From IMG/VR virus record IMGVR_UViG_3300045988_165036, positions 1-64,000 of that record: DNA of 64,000 nucleotides. One strand, 5' to 3'. Shown piece by piece: positions 24,131 to 62,883 of this stretch. Numbering within the stretch: the first letter of the stretch is position 1; every line of letters begins with the position of its first letter. The DNA is from a virus. A program made the position numbers and the translations under genes. The notes below the pieces were generated by a model that did not search any database, was not told the origin of the DNA, and saw only the letters and a program-made list of their open reading frames with translations.

Positions 24131-27100
24131 GTGGAAGATATGAACCTTTTTGGTGGATTTCAGACCGCTCTTTCTGGGGCTGGAAGCGGATTAATCTCTG
24201 CTTCTAAAGATGTTGAATCGTATATTCAGAACATATATCAAGACGCGGCCGACAATATTTCCGAGAGAAAAAAACTTTTTAAAAACTTAGTAGAAAAAAT
24301 TGGTATTGCCGAAGACAAAGGAATTAAGAGCATTCTTGATAGATATGAAGAGTTCGAAAAAGAAGCGATTGCGTTGTCGTCGAAAGAGGAAAATAGAAAT
24401 CAAAAAAAATATTCAGAAACACTACAACAGATTAGTTTAATTCAAGGAACAGTGCAGAAGGCTTTAAATCAAGCTTTCAAAAGCGCAAGCGAGACAACGA
24501 GGAGTCTTATTGATCAGATCCATAGATCCTCAACTTTTCAGGTTGAGGATCTTTTAAAACAGGCTAAAACTTTTGATATTTCTGATGCAAATTTAAAAAA
24601 AATAGAAGAAACCGCTAGAAAAGAAATTGAAAAAAATCAACAAAAAGCATTTAGAGAAACGGCAAAAGCTTTTAGAAAAATAACCGGTCAACAATTTGAG
24701 ACAATTTTAAAAACCGGAGCGGAAGGAGTTATTAAATCCGCACTTGATACCATTTCTGCAAAGTATGGATTTTCCGAAAGTGATTTGTTAAAAATGGTTG
24801 CTCCTGCTTTTCAAAGGGCTACAAAAATGGCCGGAAGCGGAAAACTGAAGGCAATAGATCCGAGCAAAATAACCGGTTCGTTTGGGAAATTAGCATCCCA
24901 AAGAATTAGCGCAATTTATTCTGGACACCCGAAAGATACAGCGAAAGCATTGCAGGAGCTTGTTGGGGCGCGGGAAGAAATTTTTGATTTTGGTAATGAA
25001 ATAGCAAAACTTTCCGATATTGCTAAAACAGTTGGAAAAAAAATTGCCGTTAATATTGATGAAGCTACAAAAGAATTACAGATTGGATTTTACGATGCCA
25101 AAAACGTTCCGCAAAAACTAAAAGGCGGAGCGTGGGACATGTCGAAAATGCCATCATTTAAATTCTCCGCGCAAAGATTAAAAGAGGGACTGCTTTCTCG
25201 AAGCGGAATGACAACTCCAAATGATTTGGTTATGAAGTTCGACAAAGACACTCAAAAGACTGTCGTTACAACTACTGCAAATTTAATTATGGATGGTGTT
25301 GCCGATGTATTAAGATCTGCTAGTGGTGTCTCGGATAAAGACCTTATGTATCGTCTTAGAAAAGCGGTTGATAGGGGCTATAGAGGAGCGTCTTCTGAGT
25401 CGACTAAGTTTTTTGATAAAGAAATTAATGATTTAAGAGACGGAATCAGTTCTGGTCGAATTATGAATATGGGCGGTCGGATTAATGTTGTTCCTGCGTT
25501 TTTTGATATCTTGAAAGCAATCAAAAAGGCGAACATAGACGTCGGAACAACCTCTGAGCACTATGATGAAAAAGTATTTCGAGATTTATTTAGCGTTATT
25601 AATGCGTGGAGGGTTGCTGGGAGAAGCGTTGAAAAGCTAAAGTCTGATGCGACATACGGTTATTTATTTAAAGACAATGGTATTGCAAATATGATCAAGA
25701 TGGTCATAGATCCAATATCTAGACTTTCTCTGGCAGTCGGACAAGGGTCGACCGCTCAAATAAACAACGGATATATTCAACTTGCGGCCAACTGGCAAAG
25801 AGCGGCTTCGTTTTTGCCCGGGGATACGTCAAAGCATTTATCTCAAACGCAGAATTATGAAATACCCCGTGGAGGAATGAGGGGTTCTTTACCGTCTACA
25901 AAAATTAGAACAGCAGCAGGACAGGCTCTTGGATTTAATTATGACGCTCTTTCTGAAAGGCTATATAACATTCAATATATAACAGAAGAAAAGTTGTTAG
26001 AAGAGTGGGATAAATGGCTCGAGTCAGAAAGCGGAAAAGAATATTTAGGACAAGGTGGTTCCAAAATCCTACCGGGATTGCATGACAGTGCATCAATATA
26101 TAGAAGTGATTTAATAAATGATTTTATAACTCAAAGATATAGATATAAAAGAGTTAGCGCCAACGATTGGTATGAAACCCAAAGAAAGCTCGGATTGTCT
26201 GGCAAGTTGTCTGGTTTGTCTGAAAATCAAGTAGCGGCAACCATCGTGTCTAATATTATGGGCGTTGATATCAAAAACATAGAAGATCTTAAATGGGGGC
26301 AAATGTCTGGAGACGACGGGAGCGTTGATCCCACGAGAGATTTTGTCTTTAATTTCAACGAAATTGTGGACTGGATGGGGAACCCAAAGGGTCTTGGAGC
26401 TGAAACAGGAACTCGTTCTGCAATGATGCCCATCGTCAGTAAGTTTATAACAGAAAGATTTGGTCAAAATATTCATATGCTTCGGCTTGCTGAAGAAATG
26501 GGATCCAATGATTTTGGAGGTATGATCGTTGGCGCCATTCAACATGTGCTTGTTAATGGGAAGTCGGCAAAAGATGTTGTGTCTGCATTAAAAGGAACCT
26601 CTTTGGAGGGAATGTTTGAAGCAGATGGAGATAATCTGATTTTGTCTTCAACTATGGACAAAACCAGAGCTCTTGATTTAAATAAAGTTCAAAGAGAGCT
26701 CGAATCAAGTCTTGGAATCCAATTCAAGGAAGGGCTTGTTATTTCGGAAGCTGTAAACGCTGCACACGATTATTTTTATCAAAAAGATACAAAGTATGGG
26801 CAAAGAGAACTTGAGGCAATGCGCAGAACTATTTCGACTGCAAGTTCTATAAATAAAGATATTGACTTTACAGAATTTTTATCACACGAAGAATCAACCG
26901 TTGTTAGCAAGGGTGCTGAAGATGCTAAAAAGATGAGAGATTCTTATGCAAAAGCCTTTAGAGCATCTTTTGGATCAAACGAATTACAAGATGAAGTAAA
27001 AGATATTACGGAAGAATTTCTCGGAAAAGATACAACTTTCGCTTTCAATCAAGAGTCAGATCTTGGGTTAGTTGATGCAGAAAGTTTTGCCAATTCAGCA

Positions 27101-30100
27101 TTAGCTAATATTTATGAACAAATTTCACAAAGTGGAGCTGGGTTTGGTAGAATATCTTTGCCGAAAGGATTTAAACCAATTAAGCATACAGATGGATTTG
27201 GTAAAGAGTGGTCAATGTCAAGCATTGTAGTTCCAGCAAGAGAACACGAGACTGAAACAGCCTTTTTTGATGCTGCTCATCAAACCGGAATTTCTCTTTC
27301 TGAATTTGACATATCTCTTAATAGGGTTATACGTTCAATCGCAGAATATAATGATATAATGGGAGATTCCAAAAAGAGTGAAGAAGATAGGGAATATATT
27401 ACAAATAAGCTTAATAGAGATCTTGAAAATTTTTATAGAGACAATTATGCTTATTTTACCAGTAAAGATTCTCCTATCGCTCAAGATATATACTATAATC
27501 GAGTTAGAGGATCTCATTCTTTTATGGCCGCAGGTCTTAGCGAAGCTCAAAGAGATAAACTTTTAAAAAGCTCGAATCCAGATGAAAAAAAACGTCAAGA
27601 TGAAAAAGAGCTCGGAAAGATTTTAGATGAGAGTTATTTAGTTGGCCCGGAGGCAATGAGAAAATTAATCGGGGATGACATTAAAGATATTAAGGCTCAA
27701 TATGAATATATTTTTGGCGAAAAAGCATCTAAAAAAATGAGTAAAGATGAGATGCTTGATAAAATTATTGAAGCTATGACCGTCGAAAATATTGGGACAG
27801 ATGTCTTCAAAAAAAGAGGATTATTTTCTAAAGATCTTCGTTTCCCGTCTATTCAAGGACAAGACGTTCGCTATATTAGAGGTTTTGTAACGAATGCGCT
27901 TCGAGGATCTCTTGATACTGCTTATATGGGAAGCGCTGCCGCCGCAGCAAACCGTACTGACTATGATAGAGATCACGTAAATTTGCTTTCTGCTATTAGA
28001 AATATTGGCGGCGTTAAAAATGTCGAGGAATATTTGAAAGCTGCGGAAGCTGTTACTCGTCTTCATGAAGCAGTTTCTGCAAATATTAGAGATGTTAGGG
28101 CTGCAAATAAGGGGCGGATAAGTGATAAAATCGAGCTTTTTAAAGATGTAAATGTAACAGATGAGGATTTGTCACGTATTGCATCGGTAGCGGCATTAAG
28201 AAACCGGGGACAAATCGGTCTCCTGTCATCACAAGCAACGGAAATGAGAAATTTCCTTTCTAGTAAAGGATTTGACGAGATGCAGTCTGGTGATGCTCCG
28301 GCTGGATTAGGACAGCTTGTTCGTTATGCTTTTGAAAAAGCAGAACAAGATGCGATTTCTTATAAGCACGTTATTAAGAGATTATCTTCCGAAAAATTTA
28401 AGAGTTATGGGATTACCGCAGAAGCGGCGATGGCGGAAGATAGAAAAAAATATATCGAAGAACTTGGCGGAGATGTTGTTGTAGACGAGCTATTAAAACG
28501 CAGAGAGGAGCTTGAAAAACAATATAAGAACAAAGGCGGAATGCCTCTGCCAAGCGAATTGATAAATGACTTTGATGCTAAAGCTGTAAACTTGAATTTA
28601 AATAGGCTCAAATATGGCAGAGATACGCGAATTCTTAATGCAAATGACGAAGAAGTAATGCGAGCAAAGCTTGCAGCCACTACATCCCTTGAACAAGCAG
28701 TTGCTAAGGCATGGGAAAGAGATGGAACGGGTTATAAAAAAACTTCGGATTATTTTAGAGCGCTTAAAGAACTTGGAATATTTGGAGACCAAATAGAGGG
28801 AGTTCCTTTTATTCAAGCCTTAACTCAAGCAACCGCGAGTGGCGGAGAAGATTTTGAAAAAAGAATTAGAAATATTGTAAATGCAAAAAAATACAATGTT
28901 GATGTTGACGCCTTATTAATGAAGCGAGATACGAGTGGCAATTTTGTTTCAACAAGTGGTCTTGCTCAAATGCCATTTGAAATGTTGATGGACATCATTG
29001 ATATGGTTGAGGCTCCGTTCGCAACAAAAGGAAAAACCCTATTATCTCAAGCCCTTATTTCTGCAAATAGAACTCTCGGGGATGAATCTCAAAGTGATTA
29101 TGCTATCGGTAAATTTTTAAAAGCTGGCAATATAGAGGGCAAAACTCCTCAAAAAACGGTTAAAAGTGATGTGCGAGAAAAGGTTGATAATGCAAAAAAA
29201 AGAGCAATTGAAGGGAAAACTGGGAAGTCTAATGTTGATAAATATTTAACAGCGCTTGCATTAAGTGGAGCATCTGATGATGAATTAATAGCTGCGGCAA
29301 AAAACGTGCAAACTGCCGAGCAAGCCAGGTCTTTGATGCCGCAAGTTCAAAAAGAAATTAGTCGAAAGGCATCTGATGTTCGTGCGGGAGGCGATTTAAG
29401 TAAAGTTAATCCGGCAGCCTTGGCAAGCATGGAAGATTGGACTCTTTTTAAGGCAAAATTAAACGATCCTGGACATACTTATTCGAAAGTATTAGCAGGC
29501 GGGAAAGAACAGGTCCTTGGAAGAATCAAATCCGCCTCGCAAATGGGATCCTTCTTCCGGGGTGGCGAATATACCGATGCAATGAGGGCCCAAGACGAAG
29601 CGTTTGAAAGAGCTTTGGAAGGATATGGCGAAAGCAATTTTTCAATAAAAGATTTTATTGGAGAAAATTATACTTCACAAGATATTAAGATATTTGAAAA
29701 TCTTAGACGTAAAAAAATTGCGTCTGATTTTGGCACAATTCAACATAAAGAAATTGAAATTCTTGGCAAACTTTTAGCAAATCCTCCAAAAGGTTTAGAT
29801 GTTGATGCTTTATTGTCTTATAGTTCTGGAACGAGTTTTGAAGGAAAAATCCGTTCTGCGTTATCAGGAGATTCGGTTCTCAAAAAGGGATTTGAGGAAG
29901 ACTTAAAGGAATTAGAAGAAGAAAGAAGCAAGGCAGAAAAAAATCTTGGAAAATTTGGATATAATTCAGAAGATATTCAGAAATTTCAAAATGCTGCATT
30001 ATTTTCTACTCTTGCACAGACAAAGTTGACGAGACAACTTTGGTTAAAAAATGTTGCAAGAGAATATTCTCTTGGACTTGAAAGAGGAAATCTTTTGGGT

Positions 30101-32335
30101 GGTCAGGATTATACCGCTGGAACAATAGACCAGATTTATTACAAAGACGGTAAATTTGTTATTGGAGATTCAAAAAATAAGAGCGGTGCCGATCCGCTGT
30201 CTCAAGTTCTGCAAATTACTTATGGAGCGATGGCTCTTAAAAAGTTAATTCAAGAATATGGGAAGGCCAAAAACATCGGAGACGATGAACTTGATAAGTT
30301 CAAAAAACAATATGGAATAGAAGATAGTGCAGAGTTTACTTCAGCTATTGAAGAGGTTCTACAAAAGGGTGATCTTGATAACGCAATTTCTGGAATTATT
30401 ACAAAGTTTGACACAAGAGGAGGATATGTAAAAGCATATCAAACAGATCCACTTAAAGATGCCAAAATGGCGGATTTGTTAGATAGATATTCTAGAGATG
30501 CGTCAGCAATGACTCCCGAAGAGCGTGCTCAGATTGAAAAATATCAAGCAGAATTATATTCCAAAGAATCTCGTATCTTTGCAGATAATCCATCTGAATT
30601 ATCTATTTTTAAATATGACGAATTAATAGATAAAAGTTTTAAAGAATTTGCCAATGCTATTCAAAAAAGAGCAGAATTGCAAAAAAGACTCTTCAAACTT
30701 GAACAAGAAGGGCAAAGAGGAAGTATAGAATATGAATCAGCTCAAAAAGAAATTGACAAACTCAATGCCGGAATTCTTGCAAAAGAAGGAGAAAGATTTA
30801 TTGGCATTGGCGGATCTTATCAAAAAGAAGCTTCTGATTATGCTGATGCGTATGAAAAATCTATTGAGGCATATAAATCTGAATTTTCTTACAACGAAGC
30901 CATAAAAGGCATTTCGGAAGAGAGGAAACTCCAAAGTGAAATCTTCAAGTTAAACAAACAAAAGAGCGCTCTTGAAAAAGAAGATGCTAAAGCCAACGAA
31001 GCCACCATAAAAGAAATTGAAGAGGTTCTAAAGTCTTATCAGCAATCAATTGACTCCATTAAAGCCTATAGAGAACAGCTGAAAGCACTTTATGGCGACA
31101 AATGGGGCGAAGGTGCTGAAGACGGGAAGCAGACCAAACTGAAAGATATTGAGACAAGAGAAAAACTAACGGGGCTTCTTGGCGCAAGAGACGAAAAACG
31201 ACTTGCTGACGCGGAAACAAATTCTGCAACAAAAGAATATATTGCGCTCTTAAATCAACAGCTTCAGCTTGAACTCAAAATTAAGAGCTTTCAACGTGAC
31301 GCTGCTACCAGCAGAGGAAGACAAAAAGAACTTGACCTTCTTGCGGCAGAGGCATATAATGAGCAATTAGAGGAAACCAATAAAAACCTTGAAAAGATCG
31401 ACAAGAGCAAAGTTAAAAACATTGACTCGATCAATGCTGAAAATGAGTTAAAGCGCAATTCCGCGCTTGCCTCTCTTTATGCGAAGAAACCGTATTCTAA
31501 TATCTTCGAATATATCAAAGCAGACATTAGCAGAGCAACTCAGCGTATTGTTGATTTCGGTCTTGCAGCAAAAGTCCTTAATACGGCTCGCAAAGAGATT
31601 CAACAGGTTTATCAAAACATTCTGAAGCTCGACGAAGCGATGACCAACCTTCGTATTGTTACCGGCTCTAACACCGAACAAGCGAAGAGTATGATGAACG
31701 CTTATAATGACCTTGCGATGCAACTTGGCACGACTACGCAAGCTGTTGCACAATCTGCGGCAGAATGGTTGAGACAGGGTTATTCTGTTTCCGAAGCCAA
31801 CGAATTGATCAAGTCTTCGACTTATCTGTCTCGTCTTGGCTTTATGGATATGAATCAGTCTGTTACGGCGCTAACTTCTGTTATGAAGGGCTTCCGTATC
31901 GAAGCAACCGACTCGATGGACATCGTTGATAAGCTGACACAGCTCGACGCGAAGTATGCAACCACGGCTGGAGATATTGCTACGGCTCTTTCGAGAACCT
32001 CTGCGGTTGCTCGTGAGGCGGGTCTTGATCTCGACCAAACTGCAGCAGCGTTGACTACAATGATTGACGTGTCGCAGCAGGATGCGAGCAGTGTTGGTAA
32101 CGCTTTCAGAACGATTCTTGCGAGATACGGGAATGTTAAAGCAACTGCGTTTACTTCTTTGGTTGGCGACTCTGATGATGTTGACGACACAAATAGTTCT
32201 ATAAACGATACCGAAAAAGTACTCGGAGCGATTGGGATTAAAATCCGTTCGTCTTCGAGTGATATGCGTGACTTTGATGACGTTATGGATGAGCTCGCTG
32301 ACAAGTGGGTAACTCTTACCGACGTCGAAAAGAAT
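24131..32335 (+). CDS. Tape-measure protein, exon 1 (2,735 codons)
   Basis: GTG start 10 nt after GGAGG. The C-terminal part carries the TP901/TIGR01760-like core ...AGDIATALSRTSAVAREAGLDLDQTAAALT...GNAFRTILARYG...ELADKWVTLTDVEKN. The last 26 codons of the ORF-track ORF are read-through into the intron. Confidence 0.75.
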
Positions 32336-32637
32336 TTGAAACAAAGTTCCATTATGGAGCAATCCATAATTGCAAACCCATTGAATTGCTGGAACGCCCT
32401 TAGAGTAGTATAAACTAAAACATAGCGATGAAATATACGCAAGTGTGAATGTGGAAAATTATACTGATTGGGTAATCAGCAGCTAAGCTCCGAATAGGAG
32501 AAAGTTCAACGACTAAGTGGTGGCAAGCGCCATCCAGTGGTGGGCTCCACGAAAGTGGATGATGAGATAGTCTAATCTCATATGAAAGTATGAGGAACAA
32601 AAGTTCGTATGATTTAGCGAATCATATAAATAAAATG
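32336..32637 (+). ncRNA. Group I intron 1 in the tape-measure gene (ORF-less, 302 nt)
   Basis: The 5' exon ends in U32335 and the intron ends in G32637. P4-like CUGAUU/AAUCAG (32464-79), Q-like AAUCAGCAGC, R-like GUUCAACGACUAAGUGG (32504-20), S-like GAGAUAGUC (32564-72). P7 is GACUA/UAGUC. P3 is CCAUU(32378-82)/AGUGG(32516-20). P9 hairpin at 32577-94. P1 is weak. Confidence 0.65.
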
Positions 32638-32661
32638 GCCGTTTCAACGGCACTCGCGGGT
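32638..32661 (+). CDS. Tape-measure protein, 24-nt micro-exon (AVSTALAG)
   Basis: GCC GTT TCA ACG GCA CTC GCG GGT supplies exactly the xIAxALAG segment expected between ...EKN and VRQRN... in tape-measure proteins. It is flanked by intron-terminal G32637 and ends in U32661, which pairs in the P1 of intron 2. Confidence 0.65.
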
Positions 32662-33038
32662 AAATTTATGCCCGTGTGTGGGTTAAAATACACACAAAGA
32701 ACACATTTAATTGCAGGTAAAACCTTAGAGCCTTTTACCACAATAATCAAGAAATTAGATTATGACGGTTTAAAAACAAAAGGATTGGTAGATCTGCAAC
32801 GAAGCTCCTAAATGAATATTTCACAAGGAGAACGTTCAACGACCATCCCCCGATGAGGGGCGTATTAATTATGCTACAGGAGTACGGCGCAAATAAAGGC
32901 GTGGGTGAAAATCCCTCAAATGGAAATGGTGTGACTCGGTATGAAAATACAGGGTTAAGAAATGGTCTATTCTTGCGCGAAAACGCAAGCTGAAATTTAA
33001 TATAATAATTAGTTATTGATTTAAAAGGGGATTAAAAG

Positions 33039-33224
33039 ATGAAAGAGTATTATAACGTTTCTCAATTAAGAGTTTGCCGATATCTTTACTCACTGGGATT
33101 TGAGAAAGAAAGTTGGTTCGACAAAAACGGAAAAGAACATTGGCGATTTGAAAAAACAGATGATTTGATGATTGCTATGGATTTTTACAAAAAAATGAGA
33201 GACAAAAATAAAGTAAATAATTAA
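33039..33224 (+). CDS. Intron-encoded small protein (DUF5659-like by eye)
   Basis: 61 aa with RBS AAAAGGGG. The pattern ...CRYLYSLGFEKESWFDKNGKEHWRFEKTDDL..AMDFY resembles small Firmicutes/phage proteins of unknown function. Confidence 0.45.
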   Translation: MKEYYNVSQLRVCRYLYSLGFEKESWFDKNGKEHWRFEKTDDLMIAMDFYKKMRDKNKVNN

Positions 33225-33243
33225 AATCTTGGAGGTTTTTCAT

Positions 33244-34017
33244 ATGAAAAAATGGACAGAAGAAGAAATTGAATGGTTAAAAGAGAATTTTCCACATAAA
33301 CAATTTAGCGAAATGGAACGATATCTTAACAGATCTTGTCAAGCTATTACAAAAATGGCGCATAGATTAAAAATCAAAAGAGATGAATTGGTTTATAAAA
33401 ATTTTACAAAGGAACAGGATGAATGGTTGAGAAAGTTCTATTATGATGCGAGTTGGGAAGATCTTTTACAGAAATTTTCAAATTTATCAAAAACGCAAAT
33501 TGAGGCCCGGGCAAAATATCTGAAAATTAAAAGAAAACCAACATTTTATAAGTTCTCTAAAGAAGAAGATGAAACATTAAAAAAGTATTTTGGGAAAATT
33601 TCAACAAAAGAAGTATCCTTGCTCCTTGATGGTAGGGATGAAAAGGCGATATATCATCGCGCAAGAAAATTGGGGCTGGAAGTATATAAAATATGGACAA
33701 AAGAAAAAGACGAGTTTCTTATCAACAATTATGATAAGCTAAGAATAAGGGATCTTATGAAAGCGCTTGGCTTAAATTCTAATACACCAATTTATAATCG
33801 TATGCGAGAACTTGGTCTGCAAAATTGTGGAATTGGAAGAATTTGGAATGATGGAGATGACAGATTTTTAATAGATAATTATAATTTACTAACAAATAAA
33901 GATATTGCTTCTATATTAAAAAGAACAGAAATTGCTATAAAGAGCCGAGCAAGTAATCTTGGTATCAAAAAAGAAATAAATATGGATTGGGAAACAATAC
34001 GCCAGAGCAGTTTATAG
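33244..34017 (+). CDS. Intron-encoded protein built from five Myb/SANT-like HTH repeats, with no recognisable nuclease motif
   Basis: ATG 33244 lies 8 nt after GGAGG. Five ~48-aa repeats start WTEEEIEWLKENF, FTKEQDEWLRKFY, FSKEEDETLKKYF, WTKEKDEFLINNY and WNDGDDRFLIDNY. Each ends in a basic helix (..HRLKIKR, ..AKYLKIKRK, ..ARKLGLEV, ..MRELGLQN, ..ASNLGIKKE). Confidence 0.6.
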   Translation: MKKWTEEEIEWLKENFPHKQFSEMERYLNRSCQAITKMAHRLKIKRDELVYKNFTKEQDEWLRKFYYDASWEDLLQKFSNLSKTQIEARAKYLKIKRKPTFYKFSKEEDETLKKYFGKISTKEVSLLLDGRDEKAIYHRARKLGLEVYKIWTKEKDEFLINNYDKLRIRDLMKALGLNSNTPIYNRMRELGLQNCGIGRIWNDGDDRFLIDNYNLLTNKDIASILKRTEIAIKSRASNLGIKKEINMDWETIRQSSL

Positions 34018-34152
34018 AATTTGTTTCTAATTTTTTCCCAGAAAAATTGGAAACATTATTAAAATATATGAAAAAAACAATAAAAATAACTAATTAAAAA
34101 ATAAATTATATTAAATTTCGGGTCGGAGTTATGAACCGACTGAATTCAAAAG

Positions 34153-37100
34153 GTCAGACAGCGTAATATTTTCGGGATCTATATGGAAAATTACGACACA
34201 TACAAACAGGCAATTTCTGAAGCCGAAAAAGCCCAGGGAACCGCCGCTCGTAAAATGCAGGCGTATAATGAAAGTGTTGCGTATAGTATCAATCAGCTCT
34301 CTGCGGCATGGGAAGGATTTACGCAAAAACTTGAGGCAAGTCCGGCCGTCAAGGGTATTTATTGGATTTTGACGCAAGGAATAAAGAATCTTGATCACAT
34401 TTTGCAGTGGTTAATACCCATTATCGCAACATTTAATGCCGATAAAATCGTAAGTCTCGCTAAATTTTTGTTTCCTTTGGTGACGGCTATTCCGAAAGCG
34501 GTTGGAAATGGATTTAAAGATCGTCACGGTAATGAATTCTATGAAAATATGACTCAAAAGATGACCGCAGAAAATACCAATGCTATTGAAGAGTTAACCA
34601 ATGCGACAAAAGATAACACTGCGGCATTAAGAGGAAGAAAGTCGAAGAGCGGCGCTGGCGGAGTTGGTAAAGCAGATGAGGGGGCAACACCAAAGGGCCC
34701 CAAAACAAAACAAAAGCCATATCAAAAGTATACATCTGATGTAAGGTCTCGCATAGATAGTCTTAATTATCATATTTCTGAAGCGGAAAAACAAGGAAAT
34801 GTTTCGGACGTAGAAAAACTTAAGAAAATTAAGTCGGAAGAATTAAGAAAAATAGAAGGAAACAAACCGGAAATTATTTCTGCGTATAGAAAAGATACCA
34901 GGGATGCGACAGAATTAGCCCAAAAACAAATTAATGAAATTGACAAAAGAGTGCAAGATTCAAAGGCTAACGCCCTTATGAGAAAAGAAATTGCGGAAAA
35001 TGCCCATAAAAACGGGCAGGTACAATCGAAACTTAAAGAGAAGGACAGAAGGGCTGAAGCTTCGCAGATTCACGCGGCTGAAATGGAGGCTTCTGGAGAG
35101 CAGCAGAAGGAGCAGATATTTAAAGAAAGAAACGATAGGCTCAAAGAGATTAAAAAACGGACAAAAAAAGATTTACGAGAAGAAAATAAGAGATTAAAAC
35201 AACAGGAAGAGGAATATAATAGAGCCAATAGCACTGGGAGAGCTAAAACCAGAACAGACGTAAAAGAACTCGCCCCAGAAGAACGCGCAAATCTTGAGGC
35301 TCAAAAGAAACTGGAGCGTTCCGCTCGTCTAAAGACCGGTGTTGTTTCTGGCATTGGCGCCGGAGCCGTTCGCTTTGCAAACAAAGGATCAAGTTTCCTC
35401 GATGAGGCTATGGGTGTTTCTGGTGTCGAAGTTGACACCGGTGAAGCTCTTGCAATGGGCGTTGCTCAGGGTGCTCTAACTGGAGTTGCGACTGCGTTTA
35501 TGGGACCTGCCGGAGCAGTTCTTGCCTCAATTCTTGGAGACGTTTTGTCTTCTTTCTGGAAAAAAATTGCTCACGCAGACGAAATTGATCGTAAACAGCG
35601 TGTCGAAGATGCCAAAAAACAACTCGAAGCAATTAAAGGGATCGAAAGTTCAGTTACTGGTTTGATTGATTTAAACAAAAAAAATCAAGCGCTGTGGGAT
35701 TCTGATGAATGGAAACAATTCAACGAACAGGTTGAAACAATCAATGAAGCTCTTGAAAAATCAGAGCTCGGAGATAGAATAATCAACCTCGGCAACAGTA
35801 CACAAACCCTTTCTGAATATTTCGAAGAAGCGGCAAGAACCGGAAATAAAGATATGCTTTCTCGCGTCGAAGCGGAGAGAATTCGTTTTGAGGCTGAAAA
35901 GACATACGCTGCAGGAGAACAGGATCGTTATACCCTCCAAAAAGAGATTAACGAGAATCAAAAGAAGCTCGCAAAGCTTGATAACGACGAGATATCGAAA
36001 AGGAAAGAACTTAACGTAGCAATCAAAGCTGCGAGGTCAGAAATTAAAGACTATTCCGAAGCCCTGAAGAGGGGTTATATGCAAGCGTCGTTCTACTCTT
36101 CTGGCGTTGGAACAATGGAGTCTTATGACATTGGAAACGCAACGCTTGATAGAGTAATTATGCAAATCGCTCGAGAATGGGCAAAAGATAGTCCTGATAT
36201 TTTTGCTGGAAATCAGCTGACGAGCGATGCTCGTTTCGAAATTATTTCGTATCTGCGAGAACAGCCGGGCTATTCTTCTCTGTTTAAAAACGACACGAAG
36301 AATGTTGGAGATATGTTAACAGCAAGAGACGCAGTTGATGATTTGAGAAAATCTCTTAATATGTCTCAAAAACAATTGAAAGAGTTTGCCAATAGTAAAG
36401 ATCTTCTTAAAATTGGAAAGTCTTTCGGTTTAATTAAAGATGATATTATTGATATTAATCAATTGTCAGAAGCAGACAAATCTGCTGTTTATAAATTGAT
36501 CGATAAAATTAATCTTGTTGATGAAGACGGAATTACAACAATTGCACACGCAATGAATATGACCGTTGAAGAATTTGAAAGAGCAAATGCAGATGGAGCA
36601 TTTAACTGGCTAACAGCTGATGTTGCGATTGGTGGAATAGATAAGTTAAATGAAAAAATGCAGACATTTAACGATTTGTTATCTGCAGCATCCGAGGGTT
36701 CCCTTTTAACTTCTGAAAATCTAAACAAGATTGCAAATCAATTCCCAACATTGCTCCGTGGAGTTGACGAAGCTGGGAAATATACAAAAGATTTGAGCTC
36801 CGATAATATTCTTGATAATATAATCAGAATGATGACAGACGAAGATTCCTTACGAGAAATTTATTCTGGACTATTTTCTGGAAGCGTAGCAAAAGATTCT
36901 GAAATCTGGAATAATTTTATGACCCTTGGAAAAGGAAGCGAAATTGCTAATTCCAATCTTTCTGAAGAGATTAAAGAGCGTATTAAAAAAGCAGGCTCTT
37001 ATTCTGATATCGTCGATATTTTTGCAATGGATAAGATGAAAGAATATAATGACGCGTTTAAAGAGTATGTTACAAGTATGTATCCAATAACTGATTTACT

Positions 37101-38694
37101 TGATGCACAAGCAAAGATTTTGGAGGAATACGGAAAATATACTCTAGAGACAGAGATTTCTAATCTTGAGTCGGTTCGAGATTCTCTTGACGATGTTAAT
37201 AAACAGCGCGAGAAGGAACTTGAACTGATTAAAGCAAAAGAAGCTCTTGAAAATGCATCAAAAGAAAAGAAGCGCATATATCGTGCTGGAGTCGGATTTG
37301 TCTATACGACAGATCAAGAAGCTGTTAAATCTGCGCAGGGAAAAGTTGACGAACTAGAAAGACAACGTGACAAAGACAATATTCAATATCAGATTGATTC
37401 GTTGCAACAGCAGAAAGAAATTCTTGAAAATATTGAAAACAACAAGCAATTAGAGTCTCTCGTTGATACCGCAGAAAGGATTCTCGGTAGCGATGGTTCG
37501 AATAATGGCATTGCCGGAATTATTACTGCCGTTAATTCAATAACTAGTGATGAATTTATAAATAAAATCAAAGAACAGGTTAAGACCGGGATTACTGAAT
37601 CAATTCAAAAAACAAACGACGAATCAAAAGAATCGGCTTACAAGAGCTATAAAGAGGCACAGTCTAGCTTAGAAGATTTTCGCAAAGAAGAATATGTGAC
37701 GCCAGAGGGAGAAAAAACAGGGTATGCAAAAGGAGATATTTTGAATAATCCAAGATCCCCATATTATTCTTCTGTTTATGACGAATATAAGTCTAAAATA
37801 AATAGCGTGAATAAATATGCTGAAAATTACAATAAGTATGTACAAGATAATTCTAAAAAAATCAGCAAAGAAAAGGCTGATGAGTCTAAGCAAAAATTCG
37901 GGTTTTTTGCTCCTGCATCGGGGTTAAAAAGAGTTATGGGAGCAAAGTCGGGAAACGTATTTGTATTCGGAATAAGCCCGAGCGTTAATCCAAATTGGGC
38001 AAGTAACGATCAATACACAGCAGGGAATTCTTCTAATATTTATATATCTAAACAAACTGATGATGGCGGTTTTGGTGGATTTGAACAATCTCCGTGGAAG
38101 GGGACGGCAGAAGAGGCAATAAATAAAGTAAAAGGACCCGCCCTAATTGTAAACAATAAAGGTGGAAAAGACTATTTAATTTATAAAGATGTTAATGGGG
38201 AAATCCATAATACTGTTGTTAGATTAAATAATGGAGACGAGTCTTTAGATGGGGAGCTGAGTTATGATGCATTTTTTAATGGGAAAGTTTTTAGTGGATC
38301 TAATGGCTTAAAGGCATTAAGAAAAATGGCTGATAATTATAATCCATTTGCTTCTGGTACTCTTTCAGCCCCTGGTGGTCGCTCCCTGATCAACGAAAAC
38401 GGTCTTGAATCCATTATTACTCCTTCTGGAACAATCACTTCTCTTCCTGCTAAATCTGGCATTGTTCCTGCCGATCTTACTCGTAACTTGTGGGCTCTTG
38501 GTGAGGTTGCCCCTAACCTTATTGCTCGTCTTGGTGGCAACAGTCTCCAGACCAACAATTCTAATTCTTCTACTGACAATTCGATCAATATTCAGAATCT
38601 TGATGCTACGTTTAATACGCAAAGCGATTTCGACGGACGTCGATTCTTAACAGATCTTCGTAATCAGGTTATCTTGACTGCAAATAATCATTAA
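34153..38694 (+). CDS. Tape-measure protein, exon 3 (1,513 aa)
   Basis: Begins GTC AGA CAG CGT... = VRQRNIFGIYMENYDTYKQAISEAEKAQGTAARKM (consensus RQxNxFxxLMxNyd). Contains hydrophobic Gly/Ala segments. The C-terminal motif GGRSLINENGLESIITPSGTITSLPAKSGIVPA is typical of tape-measure C-termini. Confidence 0.75.
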   Translation, partial: VRQRNIFGIYMENYDTYKQAISEAEKAQGTAARKMQAYNESVAYSINQLSAAWEGFTQKLEASPAVKGIYWILTQGIKNLDHILQWLIPIIATFNADKIVSLAKFLFPLVTAIPKAVGNGFKDRHGNEFYENMTQKMTAENTNAIEELTNATKDNTAALRGRKSKSGAGGVGKADEGATPKGPKTKQKPYQKYTSDVRSRIDSLNYHISEAEKQGNVSDVEKLKKIKSEELRKIEGNKPEIISAYRKDTRDATELAQKQINEIDKRVQDSKANALMRKEIAENAHKNGQVQSKLKEKDRRAEASQIHAAEMEASGEQQKEQIFKERNDRLKEIKKRTKKDLREENKRLKQQEEEYNRANSTGRAKTRTDVKELAPEERANLEAQKKLERSARLKTGVVSGIGAGAVRFANKGSSFLDEAMGVSGVEVDTGEALAMGVAQGALTGVATAFMGPAGAVLASILGDVLSSFWKKIAHADEIDRKQRVEDAKKQLEAIKGIESSVTGLIDLNKKNQALWDSDEWKQFNEQVETINEALEKSELGDRIINLGNSTQTLSEYFEEAARTGNKDMLSRVEAERIRFEAEKTYAAGEQDRYTLQKEINENQKKLAKLDNDEISKRKELNVAIKAARSEIKDYSEALKRGYMQASFYSSGVGTMESYDIGNATLDRVIMQIAREWAKDSPDIFAGNQLTSDARFEIISYLREQPGYSSLFKNDTKNVGDMLTARDAVDDLRKSLNMSQKQLKEFANSKDLLKIGKSFGLIKDDIIDINQLSEADKSAVYKLIDKINLVDEDGITTIAHAMNMTVEEFERANADGAFNWLTADVAIGGIDKLNEKMQTFNDLLSAASEGSLLTSENLNKIANQFPTLLRGVDEAGKYTKDLSSDNILDNIIRMMTDEDSLREIYSGLFSGSVAKDSEIWNNFMTLGKGSEIANSNLSEEIKERIKKAGSYSDIVDIFAMDKMKEYNDAFKEYVTSMYPITDLLDAQAKILEEYGKYTLETEISNLESVRDSLDDVNKQREKELELIKAKEALENASKEKKRIYRAGVGFVYTTDQEAVKSAQGKVDELERQRDKDNIQYQIDSLQQQKEILENIENNKQLESLVDTAERILGSDGSNNGIAGIITAVNSITSDEFINKIKEQVKTGITESIQKTNDESKESAYKSYKEAQSSLEDFRKEEYVTPEGEKTGYAKGDILNNPRSPYYSSVYDEYKSKINSVNKYAENYNKYVQDNSKKISKEKADESKQKFGFFAPASGLKRVMGAKSGNVFVFGISPSVNPNWASNDQYTAGNSSNIYISKQTDDGGFGGFEQSPWKGTAEEAINKVKGPALIVNNKGGKDYLIYKDVNGEIHNTVVRLNNGDESLDGELSYDAFFNGKVFSGSNGLKALRKMADNYNPFASGTLSAPGGRSLINENGLESIITPSGTITSLPAKSGIVPADLTRNLWALGEVAPNLIARLGGNSLQTNNSNSSTDNSINIQNLDATFNTQSDFDGRRFLTDLRNQVILTANNH

Positions 38695-38752
38695 AAACAA
38701 AAAGAGGGCTGCGGTGAGAGATTATCACAGCCCTCTCTATGTTGGAGGATTT

Positions 38753-39379
38753 ATGAAATTTAACAAAAAATTAACAATTCTAATTTGGGTTCTTTCGTTC
38801 ACTTGGGCTCTTCCGACAACTCTTGTTGGGTGCGTCGTTGCGTTATATCTCCGATTTCGTGGAAATAAACTGAAAAGGTTCGGACCAATTTTTTACTTTC
38901 CGATCACAGAAGATTATGGGCTGAATCTTGGTCCTTTTATTCTTGCCCCTAAAAATACCGATTTTTACTTGAACGCGCACGAGCTTGGTCATCATCTTCA
39001 GGCGTGTTTCAGGTATGGACCTTTCACCGTTTTTGTTGTCGCAATTCCGAGCGTTATTCGTTTTTGGTTGAGAAAACAGAAAACATATGACGGAAAACTT
39101 TTATATGCTTGTCTGCTTGTAATCGCAATTTATATTGTGAGCGCAGCCCTTAGCTGGATCGGATATTTCACGAAAATTGTCGCACTTGCGTTTATCGGAT
39201 TATTTTTAACAATTTATGGAATTGCTATTCAGATTTGGTTGAATAGGTTCGAAGCCCCGCGTTATAAAGATGGGAACTATCCGTCGTATGATGACGCGTG
39301 GTTTGAGAGAGATGCGACTAAAAAGGGAAACGATTTTATGAGAAAGTATTTCAACGAAGAGGTGAAACGGTTTTGGTAA
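38753..39379 (+). CDS. Polytopic membrane protein with HExxH motif (putative Zn-metallopeptidase-like)
   Basis: ATG 38753 follows GGAGG. Several hydrophobic helices and the motif AHELGHHLQ. Confidence 0.45.
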   Translation: MKFNKKLTILIWVLSFTWALPTTLVGCVVALYLRFRGNKLKRFGPIFYFPITEDYGLNLGPFILAPKNTDFYLNAHELGHHLQACFRYGPFTVFVVAIPSVIRFWLRKQKTYDGKLLYACLLVIAIYIVSAALSWIGYFTKIVALAFIGLFLTIYGIAIQIWLNRFEAPRYKDGNYPSYDDAWFERDATKKGNDFMRKYFNEEVKRFW

Positions 39380-61764: not shown

Positions 61765-62883
61765 ATGGCAGCAACATTTGAATTCATAGGAAAACTGAAG
61801 AAAATCGAAAAAGAAACTGAGAAATTCAAAGCATTTGAAGAAAAGCATTATGATTCTGGTTGGACCAATCAGACTTTCAAGTTCAACGCAGTCAACGACA
61901 GCAACTCACACATTATGCAGGTTCGGGCCGGATTCTGGAGCAAGACAGACGGGTCTGTTGACGTAAGTAAGATGAAGATTTATACGCAGTCGAAGGCGGA
62001 GGGTGGTGCAAAGAGTCAGCAGATGGAAGTGGCGTTTGCAGACAGAGCAAATCCCGAGGTTCTTTCTCGCGTAGCATATTTCCGCAAATTCGGCATCAAC
62101 CTTAATGCGCCCGGGGAGGCGAAGGATTCTTCGAAAGACCTCGAGTTTGTTTTTGAGGGCGATTTTATGACCGCGCTCCGTAAGTTGATGGACAATCCGA
62201 AGTTTATGGAGCGTCGAGTAAAGATTAAGGGAACGATGAACATTCAGTATGGAGAAAGTACTGGCGTGTTTTACCGCACATTTGTTCCATCTCGTATCTG
62301 GTTTGCTTCTGATGACGAGAAAGATATGATGAGACTCTCTCTCGATTTGGTTTATGGTCCCGACGCAATTGACGATGGTGATGACGGCGTTCTTCGCGTA
62401 AACTGCCATCACAGATACTATGATATGAATTATCGCAAGGATGTTTGCAAAGGTCAGGTGACTTGTCCCATTCAGTTTGTCGTGAGGGATTCAAAGATTT
62501 TCGATCTTGTGCGTCGCAGATTTACTAATTTCCCTGATGAATGCACCTTTGCGAAAGCGGATGTGGTGCTCGACGTAATCAACAGAACAGAAATGGTGTC
62601 TATAACATATGATGACCTTTCTGACGAAGCAAAAGAGAATATTGATTTCGGTCTTTCTACTCTTGAAGATGAGATTCGTCTTGCGGGGGGGACGGTGTTT
62701 GGAGATCGTGTGACGGAGCTGCGCTTTGCAAGCTCGAGAAATATTCAGGGAACTGCGTATGAGGCGGAAGACCTGCTCCCCCCGAGGCACGATTATGCAG
62801 ACAAGACTGAGGATACGAAGAGCGATCTTTCGACGGATAAGAAGGCTGACGATGAAGACTTTGACCTCTTCGGGGATCTTTAA
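61765..62883 (+). CDS. ssDNA-binding-protein-like protein with an acidic C-terminal tip
   Basis: 372 aa. The C-terminus ...DKKADDEDFDLFGDL resembles SSB/gp2.5-type acidic tails. Lies upstream of a recombination-type ATPase. Confidence 0.35.
   Translation: MAATFEFIGKLKKIEKETEKFKAFEEKHYDSGWTNQTFKFNAVNDSNSHIMQVRAGFWSKTDGSVDVSKMKIYTQSKAEGGAKSQQMEVAFADRANPEVLSRVAYFRKFGINLNAPGEAKDSSKDLEFVFEGDFMTALRKLMDNPKFMERRVKIKGTMNIQYGESTGVFYRTFVPSRIWFASDDEKDMMRLSLDLVYGPDAIDDGDDGVLRVNCHHRYYDMNYRKDVCKGQVTCPIQFVVRDSKIFDLVRRRFTNFPDECTFAKADVVLDVINRTEMVSITYDDLSDEAKENIDFGLSTLEDEIRLAGGTVFGDRVTELRFASSRNIQGTAYEAEDLLPPRHDYADKTEDTKSDLSTDKKADDEDFDLFGDL

Follow-up and report, generated by a model that had tools for sequence, protein, structure and literature searches.

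The stretch analysed here, called the window, comprises 64,000 nucleotides (nt) of virus DNA (positions 1 to 64,000 of IMG/VR record IMGVR_UViG_3300045988_165036) and contains a phage tape-measure gene interrupted by two tandem group I introns, the second of which carries two open reading frames (ORFs), ORF1 of 61 amino acids (aa) and ORF2 of 257 aa. ORF2 is very probably what erosion has left of an HNH homing endonuclease encoded in the intron, after a 313-nt deletion took out its catalytic domain. An earlier note on this DNA, made from the letters alone, had listed, among several explanations for ORF2, a homing endonuclease that has degenerated to the DNA-binding array alone, and comparison with intact 388-aa alleles bears this option out. 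The phenomenon is an ordinary one, a standard stage in the life cycle of homing elements, and the supposed anomaly of a phage intron protein family without a nuclease dissolves into an allele-specific lesion. The features that matter most are the following, where L001 is a related gut-phage contig and P0001 the intact protein that it encodes.

33039 to 33224, plus strand: ORF1, 61 aa, a DUF5659-like small protein under purifying selection
33244 to 34017, plus strand: ORF2, 257 aa; codons 1–246 encode five three-helix repeats resembling Myb and helix-turn-helix (HTH) units, and the last 11 are out-of-frame read-through
33981 to 33982, plus strand: deletion junction; 313 nt (L001 2127–2439) are missing in the window, with single-T microhomology
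33984 to 34097, plus strand: out-of-frame relic of the nuclease-domain C-terminus, GLGNNTPEQFIEFVSNFFPEKLETLLKYMKKTIKITN and a stop, corresponding to the last 37 residues of P0001

The closest homologue of ORF2, P0001, has 388 aa and is 93% identical over 96% of ORF2 (its first 246 residues), and across related gut-phage contigs alleles that are 93–97% identical encode the 388-aa protein. Two contigs encoding P0001, L001 and L002, share the twin-intron tape-measure context of the window and an ORF1 identical to that of the window. In blastn alignments L001 2–2126 corresponds to window 31855–33981 and L001 2439–7238 to window 33981–38758, and L002 is gapped likewise. The missing segment encodes VETNYSD...CGGKC..VVHHLYANH...EDIHNKFHSIY, residues 247–350 of the P0001-type protein, and takes with it all four invariant histidines of the domain described below, which leaves the ORF2 of the window without the HNH catalytic residues. 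The loss of 313 nt, a number not divisible by three, puts the downstream sequence out of frame, and a stop codon ends ORF2 11 codons on. The relic that follows differs from L001 at 4 of 129 compared nt and is the sole match in the window to a profile of the lost domain (profile positions 116–143, E 4e-10).

Full-length alleles are the rule elsewhere: in ten of ten sampled loci carrying P0009, a protein 97% identical to ORF1, ORF2 has 388–493 aa, and in the P0001 cluster (106 members) all 15 members listed have 387–388 aa. The exact ORF2 protein of the window was not found among about 15 billion sequences, and the 22-mer spanning the deletion junction occurs neither in IMG/VR nor in JGI metagenome contigs. 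Over the retained 246 codons the ratio of nonsynonymous to synonymous divergence (dN/dS) against L001 is 0.11, and the branch of the array specific to the window, polarised with the contigs L012 and L013, carries 11 synonymous and 4 nonsynonymous changes. On the simplest reading of these comparisons the deletion appears to be recent and confined to this allele, having occurred long after the branch on which it lies had arisen.

A 15-bp hairpin lies inside the relic at 34022–34055 (GUUUCUAAUUUUUU-CCCA-GAAAAAUUGGAAAC). It shows near nucleotide identity across otherwise divergent endonuclease types, and all three changes in the contig L014 preserve pairing. The peptide motif encoded at the hairpin, F-x3-F-[FY]-P-[EN]-K-L, is also conserved family-wide, which leaves a role for the RNA structure uncertain.

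What remains of ORF2 is a putative DNA-binding array. Its ATG is preceded 7 nt upstream by GGAGG; an alternative TTG start at 33229 would give 262 aa, yet MKKWTEEE opens all homologues. The repeats occupy residues 1–51, 52–102, 103–148, 149–199 and 200–246, with the consensus K-x-W-T-K-E-x-D-E-x-L..N-Y...A-I..R-A..L-G-I-K, and AlphaFold renders the array as five three-helix units. The description in the earlier note, of a 61-aa DUF5659-like protein beside a 257-aa protein of five repeats, agrees in coordinates and repeats with the ORF list, the alignment and the AlphaFold model, and its statement that neither ORF has a nuclease motif agrees with searches of Pfam, NCBIfam and PDB sequences, in which no nuclease family was matched by either. 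ORF2 matches PHROG 323 (‘transcriptional regulator, D5-like’) at E 3e-32 and PHROG 1891 (phrog_1891, ‘HNH endonuclease’) at E 1.4e-11, the latter being the only PHROG match with a nuclease name and limited to the repeat region in the N-terminal third of the profile. It has no match in NCBIfam, and in Pfam the matches to Myb, GcrA and NUMOD1 are all sub-threshold; that to Myb/SANT (PF00249) scores 19.1 bits, under the cut-off of 24.4. The repeats are thus Myb-like in their predicted three-helix shape and are better filed under PHROG 323. They would form the separate DNA-binding module of a homing endonuclease, and the same module is N-terminal in the PHROG 1891 ‘HNH endonuclease’ and in many members of the family of the deleted domain. 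No near-identical DNA was found in the phage collection searched. A 30%-identical match to the array occurs in Mycobacterium cluster J phages (H1–H8; e.g. Thibault 62033–62335), where it sits in HNH endonuclease genes inserted in or adjacent to DNA methylase genes, which suggests that actinophage homing endonucleases use the same DNA-binding module.

For the lost C-terminal domain, searches of Pfam, NCBIfam, PHROGs and PDB sequences with a single sequence and with 4- and 31-sequence profiles produced no usable match, and only fold comparison gave the domain a name. A first, full-length AlphaFold model (predicted local distance difference test score, pLDDT, 69.6), which matched T5 SciA at merely E 0.39, was superseded by a domain-only model from 30 sequences with a pLDDT of 93.2. 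This model has strands at 47–50, bearing a pair of histidines, and at 97–100, followed by a helix at 102–112 that carries H105 and H109, with a helical insert of about 45 aa between the two motif strands; W26, H49, H50, H105, F108, H109, Y112 and G113 are invariant in 30 diverse members. Foldseek against the PDB ranks the T5 SciA HNH endonuclease first (E 5.6e-3, probability 0.99), followed by the GeoCas9 HNH domain, Cas5-HNH, EcoKMcrA and Cap5, and against BFVD it returns many viral ‘HNH endonuclease’ proteins (probability 0.96–1.0). By its predicted fold, then, the intact allele P0001 has the beta-beta-alpha-metal arrangement of HNH enzymes; assignment of the deleted domain to the HNH fold is well supported by the model, and the intact P0001-type protein would presumably be an active nuclease. 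The domain profile recovers at least 1536 cluster representatives (50%-identity clusters, E <= 1e-3), nearly always with the domain C-terminal, behind HTH-repeat arrays or CapR-like zinc modules. That an HNH-type domain family of at least 1536 clusters is unnamed in the public profile libraries tested is a by-product perhaps worth more than the main finding.

The ancestral 388-aa protein would thus have combined an N-terminal five-repeat array with a C-terminal HNH module of about 140 aa. The array would recognise an extended target around the insertion site, between ..GCG GGT and GTC AGA.., of tape-measure alleles that lack the intron, and the HNH module would nick or cut this target, whereupon repair would copy intron 2 into the intron-less allele. 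Intron 1, which has no ORF and lies only 24 nt away, would probably be copied along with it. After the deletion ORF2 would encode at most the DNA-binding array and 11 junk residues, and the intron 2 of the window would no longer be able to home alone. The intron persists while its endonuclease gene decays because the RNA must still splice, the tape-measure protein being essential.

Relatives of the window show that such decay is not confined to one allele. Between L001 (type A) and the contig L007 (type B), identity is 92–100% over the intron core, ORF1 and the first 50 nt or so of ORF2, falls to 38–55% (nt) in the body of ORF2 and returns to 88–95% in its last 100 nt or so and the 3′ part of the intron. 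Judged from these alignments, the endonuclease gene is a swappable cassette, and repeat arrays in the family have five or seven repeats. Relatives that have the same nuclease domain interrupt tape-measure genes directly after ..A[MF]AG, the same site, both in further phage lineages and in a metagenome-assembled genome of Candidatus Alloclostridium from chicken gut. In L033 and L036 the endonuclease gene is shattered into fragments and the intron retained, and in L022–L027 a zinc-finger/Vsr-like endonuclease gene carries conserved in-frame stops. Going by these alleles, endonuclease decay is recurrent and independent within the same intron family. The tape-measure site is an intron hotspot in which whole endonuclease bodies are exchanged, and offers material for studying how HTH arrays retarget nucleases.

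The zinc-finger/Vsr-like gene can be seen at L022 5197–7540 and L025 1264–2400, where a homologue of ORF1 is followed by the gene (..EIQGDYWH..) with its stops, and it is intact in L106 and L107. In L022 a 1-kb gap downstream of the gene holds about three similar intron-like units.

Several observations weigh against reading ORF2 as an eroded HNH endonuclease. The HNH call rests on a predicted fold (moderate TM-scores, 0.43–0.52) and conserved histidines, and the domain is named by no Pfam, NCBIfam, PHROG or PDB-sequence profile. The start codon and ribosome-binding site of ORF2 are retained. The 11 synonymous to 4 nonsynonymous changes on the window branch are unlike those of a long-dead pseudogene; they fit a very recent deletion but equally continued selection on the array. 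Finally, the deletion is known from one sequence alone, which leaves room for an assembly error. The retained ORF and the pattern of substitution are also what would be expected had the nuclease-less array been co-opted, kept as a site-specific DNA binder that represses a promoter or blocks the homing site during co-infection. Precedents exist: a domesticated endonuclease reportedly serves as repressor in the PLE satellite (PMC8096241), and N-terminal deletion derivatives of I-TevIII without the HNH motif still bind DNA (PMC1865063). Against co-option, the allele is unique, neither its junction nor its protein recurring in the collections named above; the lesion is an untidy frameshift with 11 junk codons and an out-of-frame relic and no clean loss of a domain; and a deletion that took place long after the branch arose would account for the low dN/dS just as well. 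We regard co-option as unlikely, and the repressor proposed in the earlier note, compatible as it is with the data, is supported by nothing.

More unlikely still is an artefact of assembly or sequencing as the source of the 313-nt gap, the true gene encoding 388 aa. The gap is seen in this one sequence alone; however, the junction is clean, with 1-nt microhomology and no ambiguous bases, no repeat that would collapse an assembly stood out within the deleted segment or at either junction (no formal repeat test was made), and the independent decay in sister lineages shows that such lesions are common.

Other explanations turn on ORF1, the 61-aa neighbour. ORF1 scores 21.4 bits (E 2.3e-4) against DUF5659 (Pfam PF18903), for which the cut-off is 23.6, and its relatives P0014 (27.3 bits) and P0013 (23.9 bits), at 61–70% identity, pass, so that ORF1 would belong to DUF5659 only by transitivity. 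It has no match in PHROGs or NCBIfam, and no mention of DUF5659 was found in the literature searched. We know of no function for the family. A PDB profile search also matched designer beta-propeller ‘Cake’ proteins by way of a DG-E-WRF hairpin motif that recurs in them; as no repeat is significant by itself, the match was rejected as an artefact. Upstream of endonucleases that share the deleted C-terminal domain, in Geobacillus virus E3 (L028 1096–2893) and in L061, L063 and L065, ORFs of 58–63 aa occupy an ORF1-like position, show FYCYS...WVF...L..W and belong to PHROG 21297; they were considered as homologues of ORF1, but no homology was detected (hhalign probability 3%).

ORF1 is nevertheless intact in every locus examined, including those in which the endonuclease gene is deleted, shattered or interrupted. 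Against L007 it shows 11 synonymous and 0 nonsynonymous changes (dS 0.57), and at deeper divergence dN is 0.17–0.35 with synonymous sites saturated. It always lies immediately upstream of the intron endonuclease gene, and it adjoins two unrelated endonuclease types, one with an HTH array and HNH domain and the other with zinc fingers and a Vsr-like domain. In L106, L107 and L022 similarity to the window is confined to the ORF1 coding region (66–72% nt), the introns and endonuclease being unrelated. By its conservation ORF1 is a real, separate gene under strong selection that travels with intron endonuclease genes. A nuclease-specific immunity or subunit role is made less likely by its pairing with two nuclease types, and an intron-specific maturase role by its presence in unrelated introns; our best guess is an accessory or regulatory role for the cassette rather than a catalytic one. 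It is conceivable, albeit doubtful, that this 57–61-aa DUF5659-type protein, and not the nuclease, is the selected core of the intron cassette. If so, ORF1 would be a new kind of intron-borne accessory gene, which might control the expression or toxicity of the endonuclease, help homing or repair, or benefit the phage and thereby pay for the intron. The earlier note had called the 61-aa protein a partner of ORF2; the support for this consists only of its conserved co-occurrence with the endonuclease gene, and ORF1 is at most a putative partner.

The constant company of ORF1 also bears on a two-component system, in which the array, with or without ORF1, would target the site for a nuclease acting in trans, or a neighbouring free-standing endonuclease would mobilise the intron, as MobE of T4 does for the nrdB intron and its I-TevIII (PMC2790892). 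This is about as improbable as an assembly error. The nuclease is fused in cis in every close relative, the domain and the array were not found a second time within the 64-kb window, and ORF1, being equally paired with the zinc-finger/Vsr-like endonuclease, is no dedicated partner of the array; no fusion of ORF1 to an endonuclease was found. A trans-acting nuclease, which the earlier note had entertained, is not needed if the nuclease was in cis until the 313-nt deletion.

Some intron-encoded proteins are maturases, the LAGLIDADG proteins among them, and ORF1 does lie, without ever decaying, in a highly conserved intron backbone (92–100% nt identity). That ORF2, for which the earlier note had put this forward, or ORF1 aids the folding and splicing of intron 2 is nonetheless the least likely explanation, as the body of ORF2 is replaced wholesale (38–55% nt) between alleles with the same intron core and shattered in L033 and L036, ORF1 recurs in unrelated introns with flanks that lack similarity to those of the window, and neither protein has a known RNA-binding motif, nor ORF2 a LAGLIDADG motif or family match, in Pfam, PHROGs or NCBIfam.

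The arrangement of the tape-measure gene can be reconstructed as follows.

24131 to 32335, plus strand: tape-measure gene exon 1, 2735 codons, ending ...TLTDVEKN in phase 0 (from the ORF list)
32336 to 32637, plus strand: group I intron 1, 302 nt, no ORF (from Rfam and its exact absence in L007)
32638 to 32661, plus strand: mini-exon, 24 nt, GCC GTT TCA ACG GCA CTC GCG GGT, encoding AVSTALAG
32662 to 34152, plus strand: group I intron 2, 1491 nt, with the catalytic core at about 32662–32990 and then an ORF-bearing 3′ extension
34153 to 38694, plus strand: tape-measure gene exon 3, 1513 codons, starting GTC AGA CAG, encoding VRQ (from the ORF list and homologue alignment)

In the ORF list a 2760-codon ORF ends at 32413 and a 1503-codon ORF starts at 34183, with about 1.8 kb between them, and the GC content is 0.28–0.31 in the region of ORF1 and ORF2 versus 0.36–0.48 in the flanks. 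Where the earlier note had seen one intron there are two in tandem, separated by the 24-nt mini-exon; its placement of the ORFs in the 3′ region holds, both lying after P9 of the intron 2 core. The end of exon 1 is set by L007 and L014, which lack intron 1 and read uninterrupted through ...TLTDVEKNAVSTALAG; as these alleles run exon 1 straight into the mini-exon, the junction between the two is proven, and intron 1 is polymorphic. The mini-exon also matches the family motif ..xVSxxVAG / NAVATAMAG without a gap. Intron 1 has its 5′ splice site after U32335 (a U-G pair in P1) and its terminal G at 32637, with a core matching Rfam RF00028 over 32326–32594 at 84.6 bits (gathering score 50 bits). 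It could have spread by co-conversion during homing of intron 2. The core of intron 2 is matched over 32652–32989 at 48.5 bits under relaxed thresholds, and at 53–55 bits in L001, L007 and L018; its 5′ splice site follows U32661, its P1 covaries (GCGGGU:GCCCGU versus GCAGGU:GCCUGU), the first four bases of exon 3 are able to pair with those immediately 5′ of the guide sequence, and a terminal hairpin at 34121–34143 precedes the terminal G at 34152. Exon 3 starts at 34153, directly after this G, since A-G-x-R-Q is invariant in the intron-less homologues P0183–P0197 (about 50% identity; NAVATAMAG-VRQRN, with AG-[VT]-R-Q invariant). Both introns thus have the features expected of group I introns, and the predicted spliced product aligns without gaps to intron-less homologues. 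That product would be a tape-measure protein of 4256 aa, in which the only Pfam domain recognised is PhageMin_Tail (residues 2526–2734), with the introns at the C-terminal edge of this domain. A scan for promoters and terminators within the intron did no better than on shuffled sequence.

A 3′ splice site at G34176 had been considered and was replaced by G34152, as its product would be 8 residues short of the family. A pair of splice sites 5 nt downstream, which would give a terminal G in all alleles, was also rejected: it would destroy the invariant arginine and move the 5′ site into the loop of P1, and it does not work for the contig L105.

The base before exon 3 varies among alleles. It is G in the window, L001, L012, L018, L030, L105 and L008, and A in L007, L014, L015, L016, L019, L033 and L037, where the intron ends ..AAAAA and the exon begins AUA or ACU; in these A-type alleles no G lies in phase close by, and the P7 guanosine-binding helix is identical. 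The A-type junctions lie at L007 7225–7235, L014 6429–6439, L033 4487–4497 and L037 4482–4492, corresponding to window 34148–34156. Either these are natural group I introns without a terminal G or their splice sites differ from those set by the coding alignment. A 73-aa ORF called by gene callers in relatives (window 32590–32811) consists of the end of intron 1, the mini-exon and P1–P5 of intron 2, and is almost certainly not a real gene. The 4256-aa spliced protein would be unusually long, and the tape-measure relatives L013, L017 and L018 have PDDEXK_1 in their upstream part in precomputed matches, weak in two of the three.

Among known systems the nearest parallel is the nrdB intron of T4, in which I-TevIII has lost its HNH domain and kept its zinc fingers, the RB3 enzyme being intact and mobile (PMC1865063); the defunct T4 intron is mobilised in trans by MobE (PMC2790892). 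In both cases a phage group I intron in an essential gene carries a modular HNH enzyme from which the catalytic domain has been deleted, the DNA-binding module remains, close relatives have the intact enzyme, and the intron stays because it must splice. The differences lie in the modules and in the layout: I-TevIII has two zinc fingers, whereas the protein of the window has an N-terminal array of five HTH repeats, with HNH C-terminal in the intact allele, and the ORFs of the window lie after P9, one of them a small conserved ORF not present in T4, with another intron next to theirs. By analogy, the window allele may be said to mirror the T4/RB3 case.

The Bacillus-phage intron enzymes I-HmuI (of SPO1), I-HmuII and I-BasI have an N-terminal HNH domain that matches Pfam, together with NUMOD/HTH modules. 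They share with the intact alleles their setting in group I introns of Firmicute phages and a modular design of HNH domain and separate extended DNA-binding region. The domain described here has no match in Pfam, NCBIfam or PHROGs and has the helical insert of about 45 aa, so the likeness is one of architecture and membership of the same family is not claimed. T5 SciA (PDB 9qgv, 9qgx) is the best structural match to the deleted domain, with 133 aligned columns; it is a small free-standing enzyme, only 16% identical (TM-score about 0.43–0.52), and the similarity is one of fold only. Among named phage proteins, only GP11 (‘endonuclease’) of Geobacillus virus E3 has the same C-terminal domain (36% identity, tblastn); GP11 is probably also the 538-aa top match in BFVD, A0A0H3UZA9 (E 9.7e-8). 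GP11 is preceded by an ORF of about 58 aa, 4 nt upstream, and differs in its N-terminus, which consists of HTH repeats and CapR-like zinc modules; an Rfam search of its surroundings gave no intron.

Homing elements reportedly pass through a cycle of invasion, fixation, endonuclease decay and loss, in the model of Goddard and Burt. The presence or absence of intron 1 and the intact, deleted, stop-interrupted and shattered endonuclease genes of sister lineages follow the same course. The value of the allele lies mainly in showing, cleanly and in a form that can be dated, how a homing element decays in uncultured gut Clostridia phages; residual interest attaches to ORF1, the unnamed HNH family, the twin-intron architecture and the alleles in which intron 2 apparently lacks a terminal G. 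The locus itself is a textbook snapshot of the homing-element cycle, with no difference in principle from what that cycle describes.

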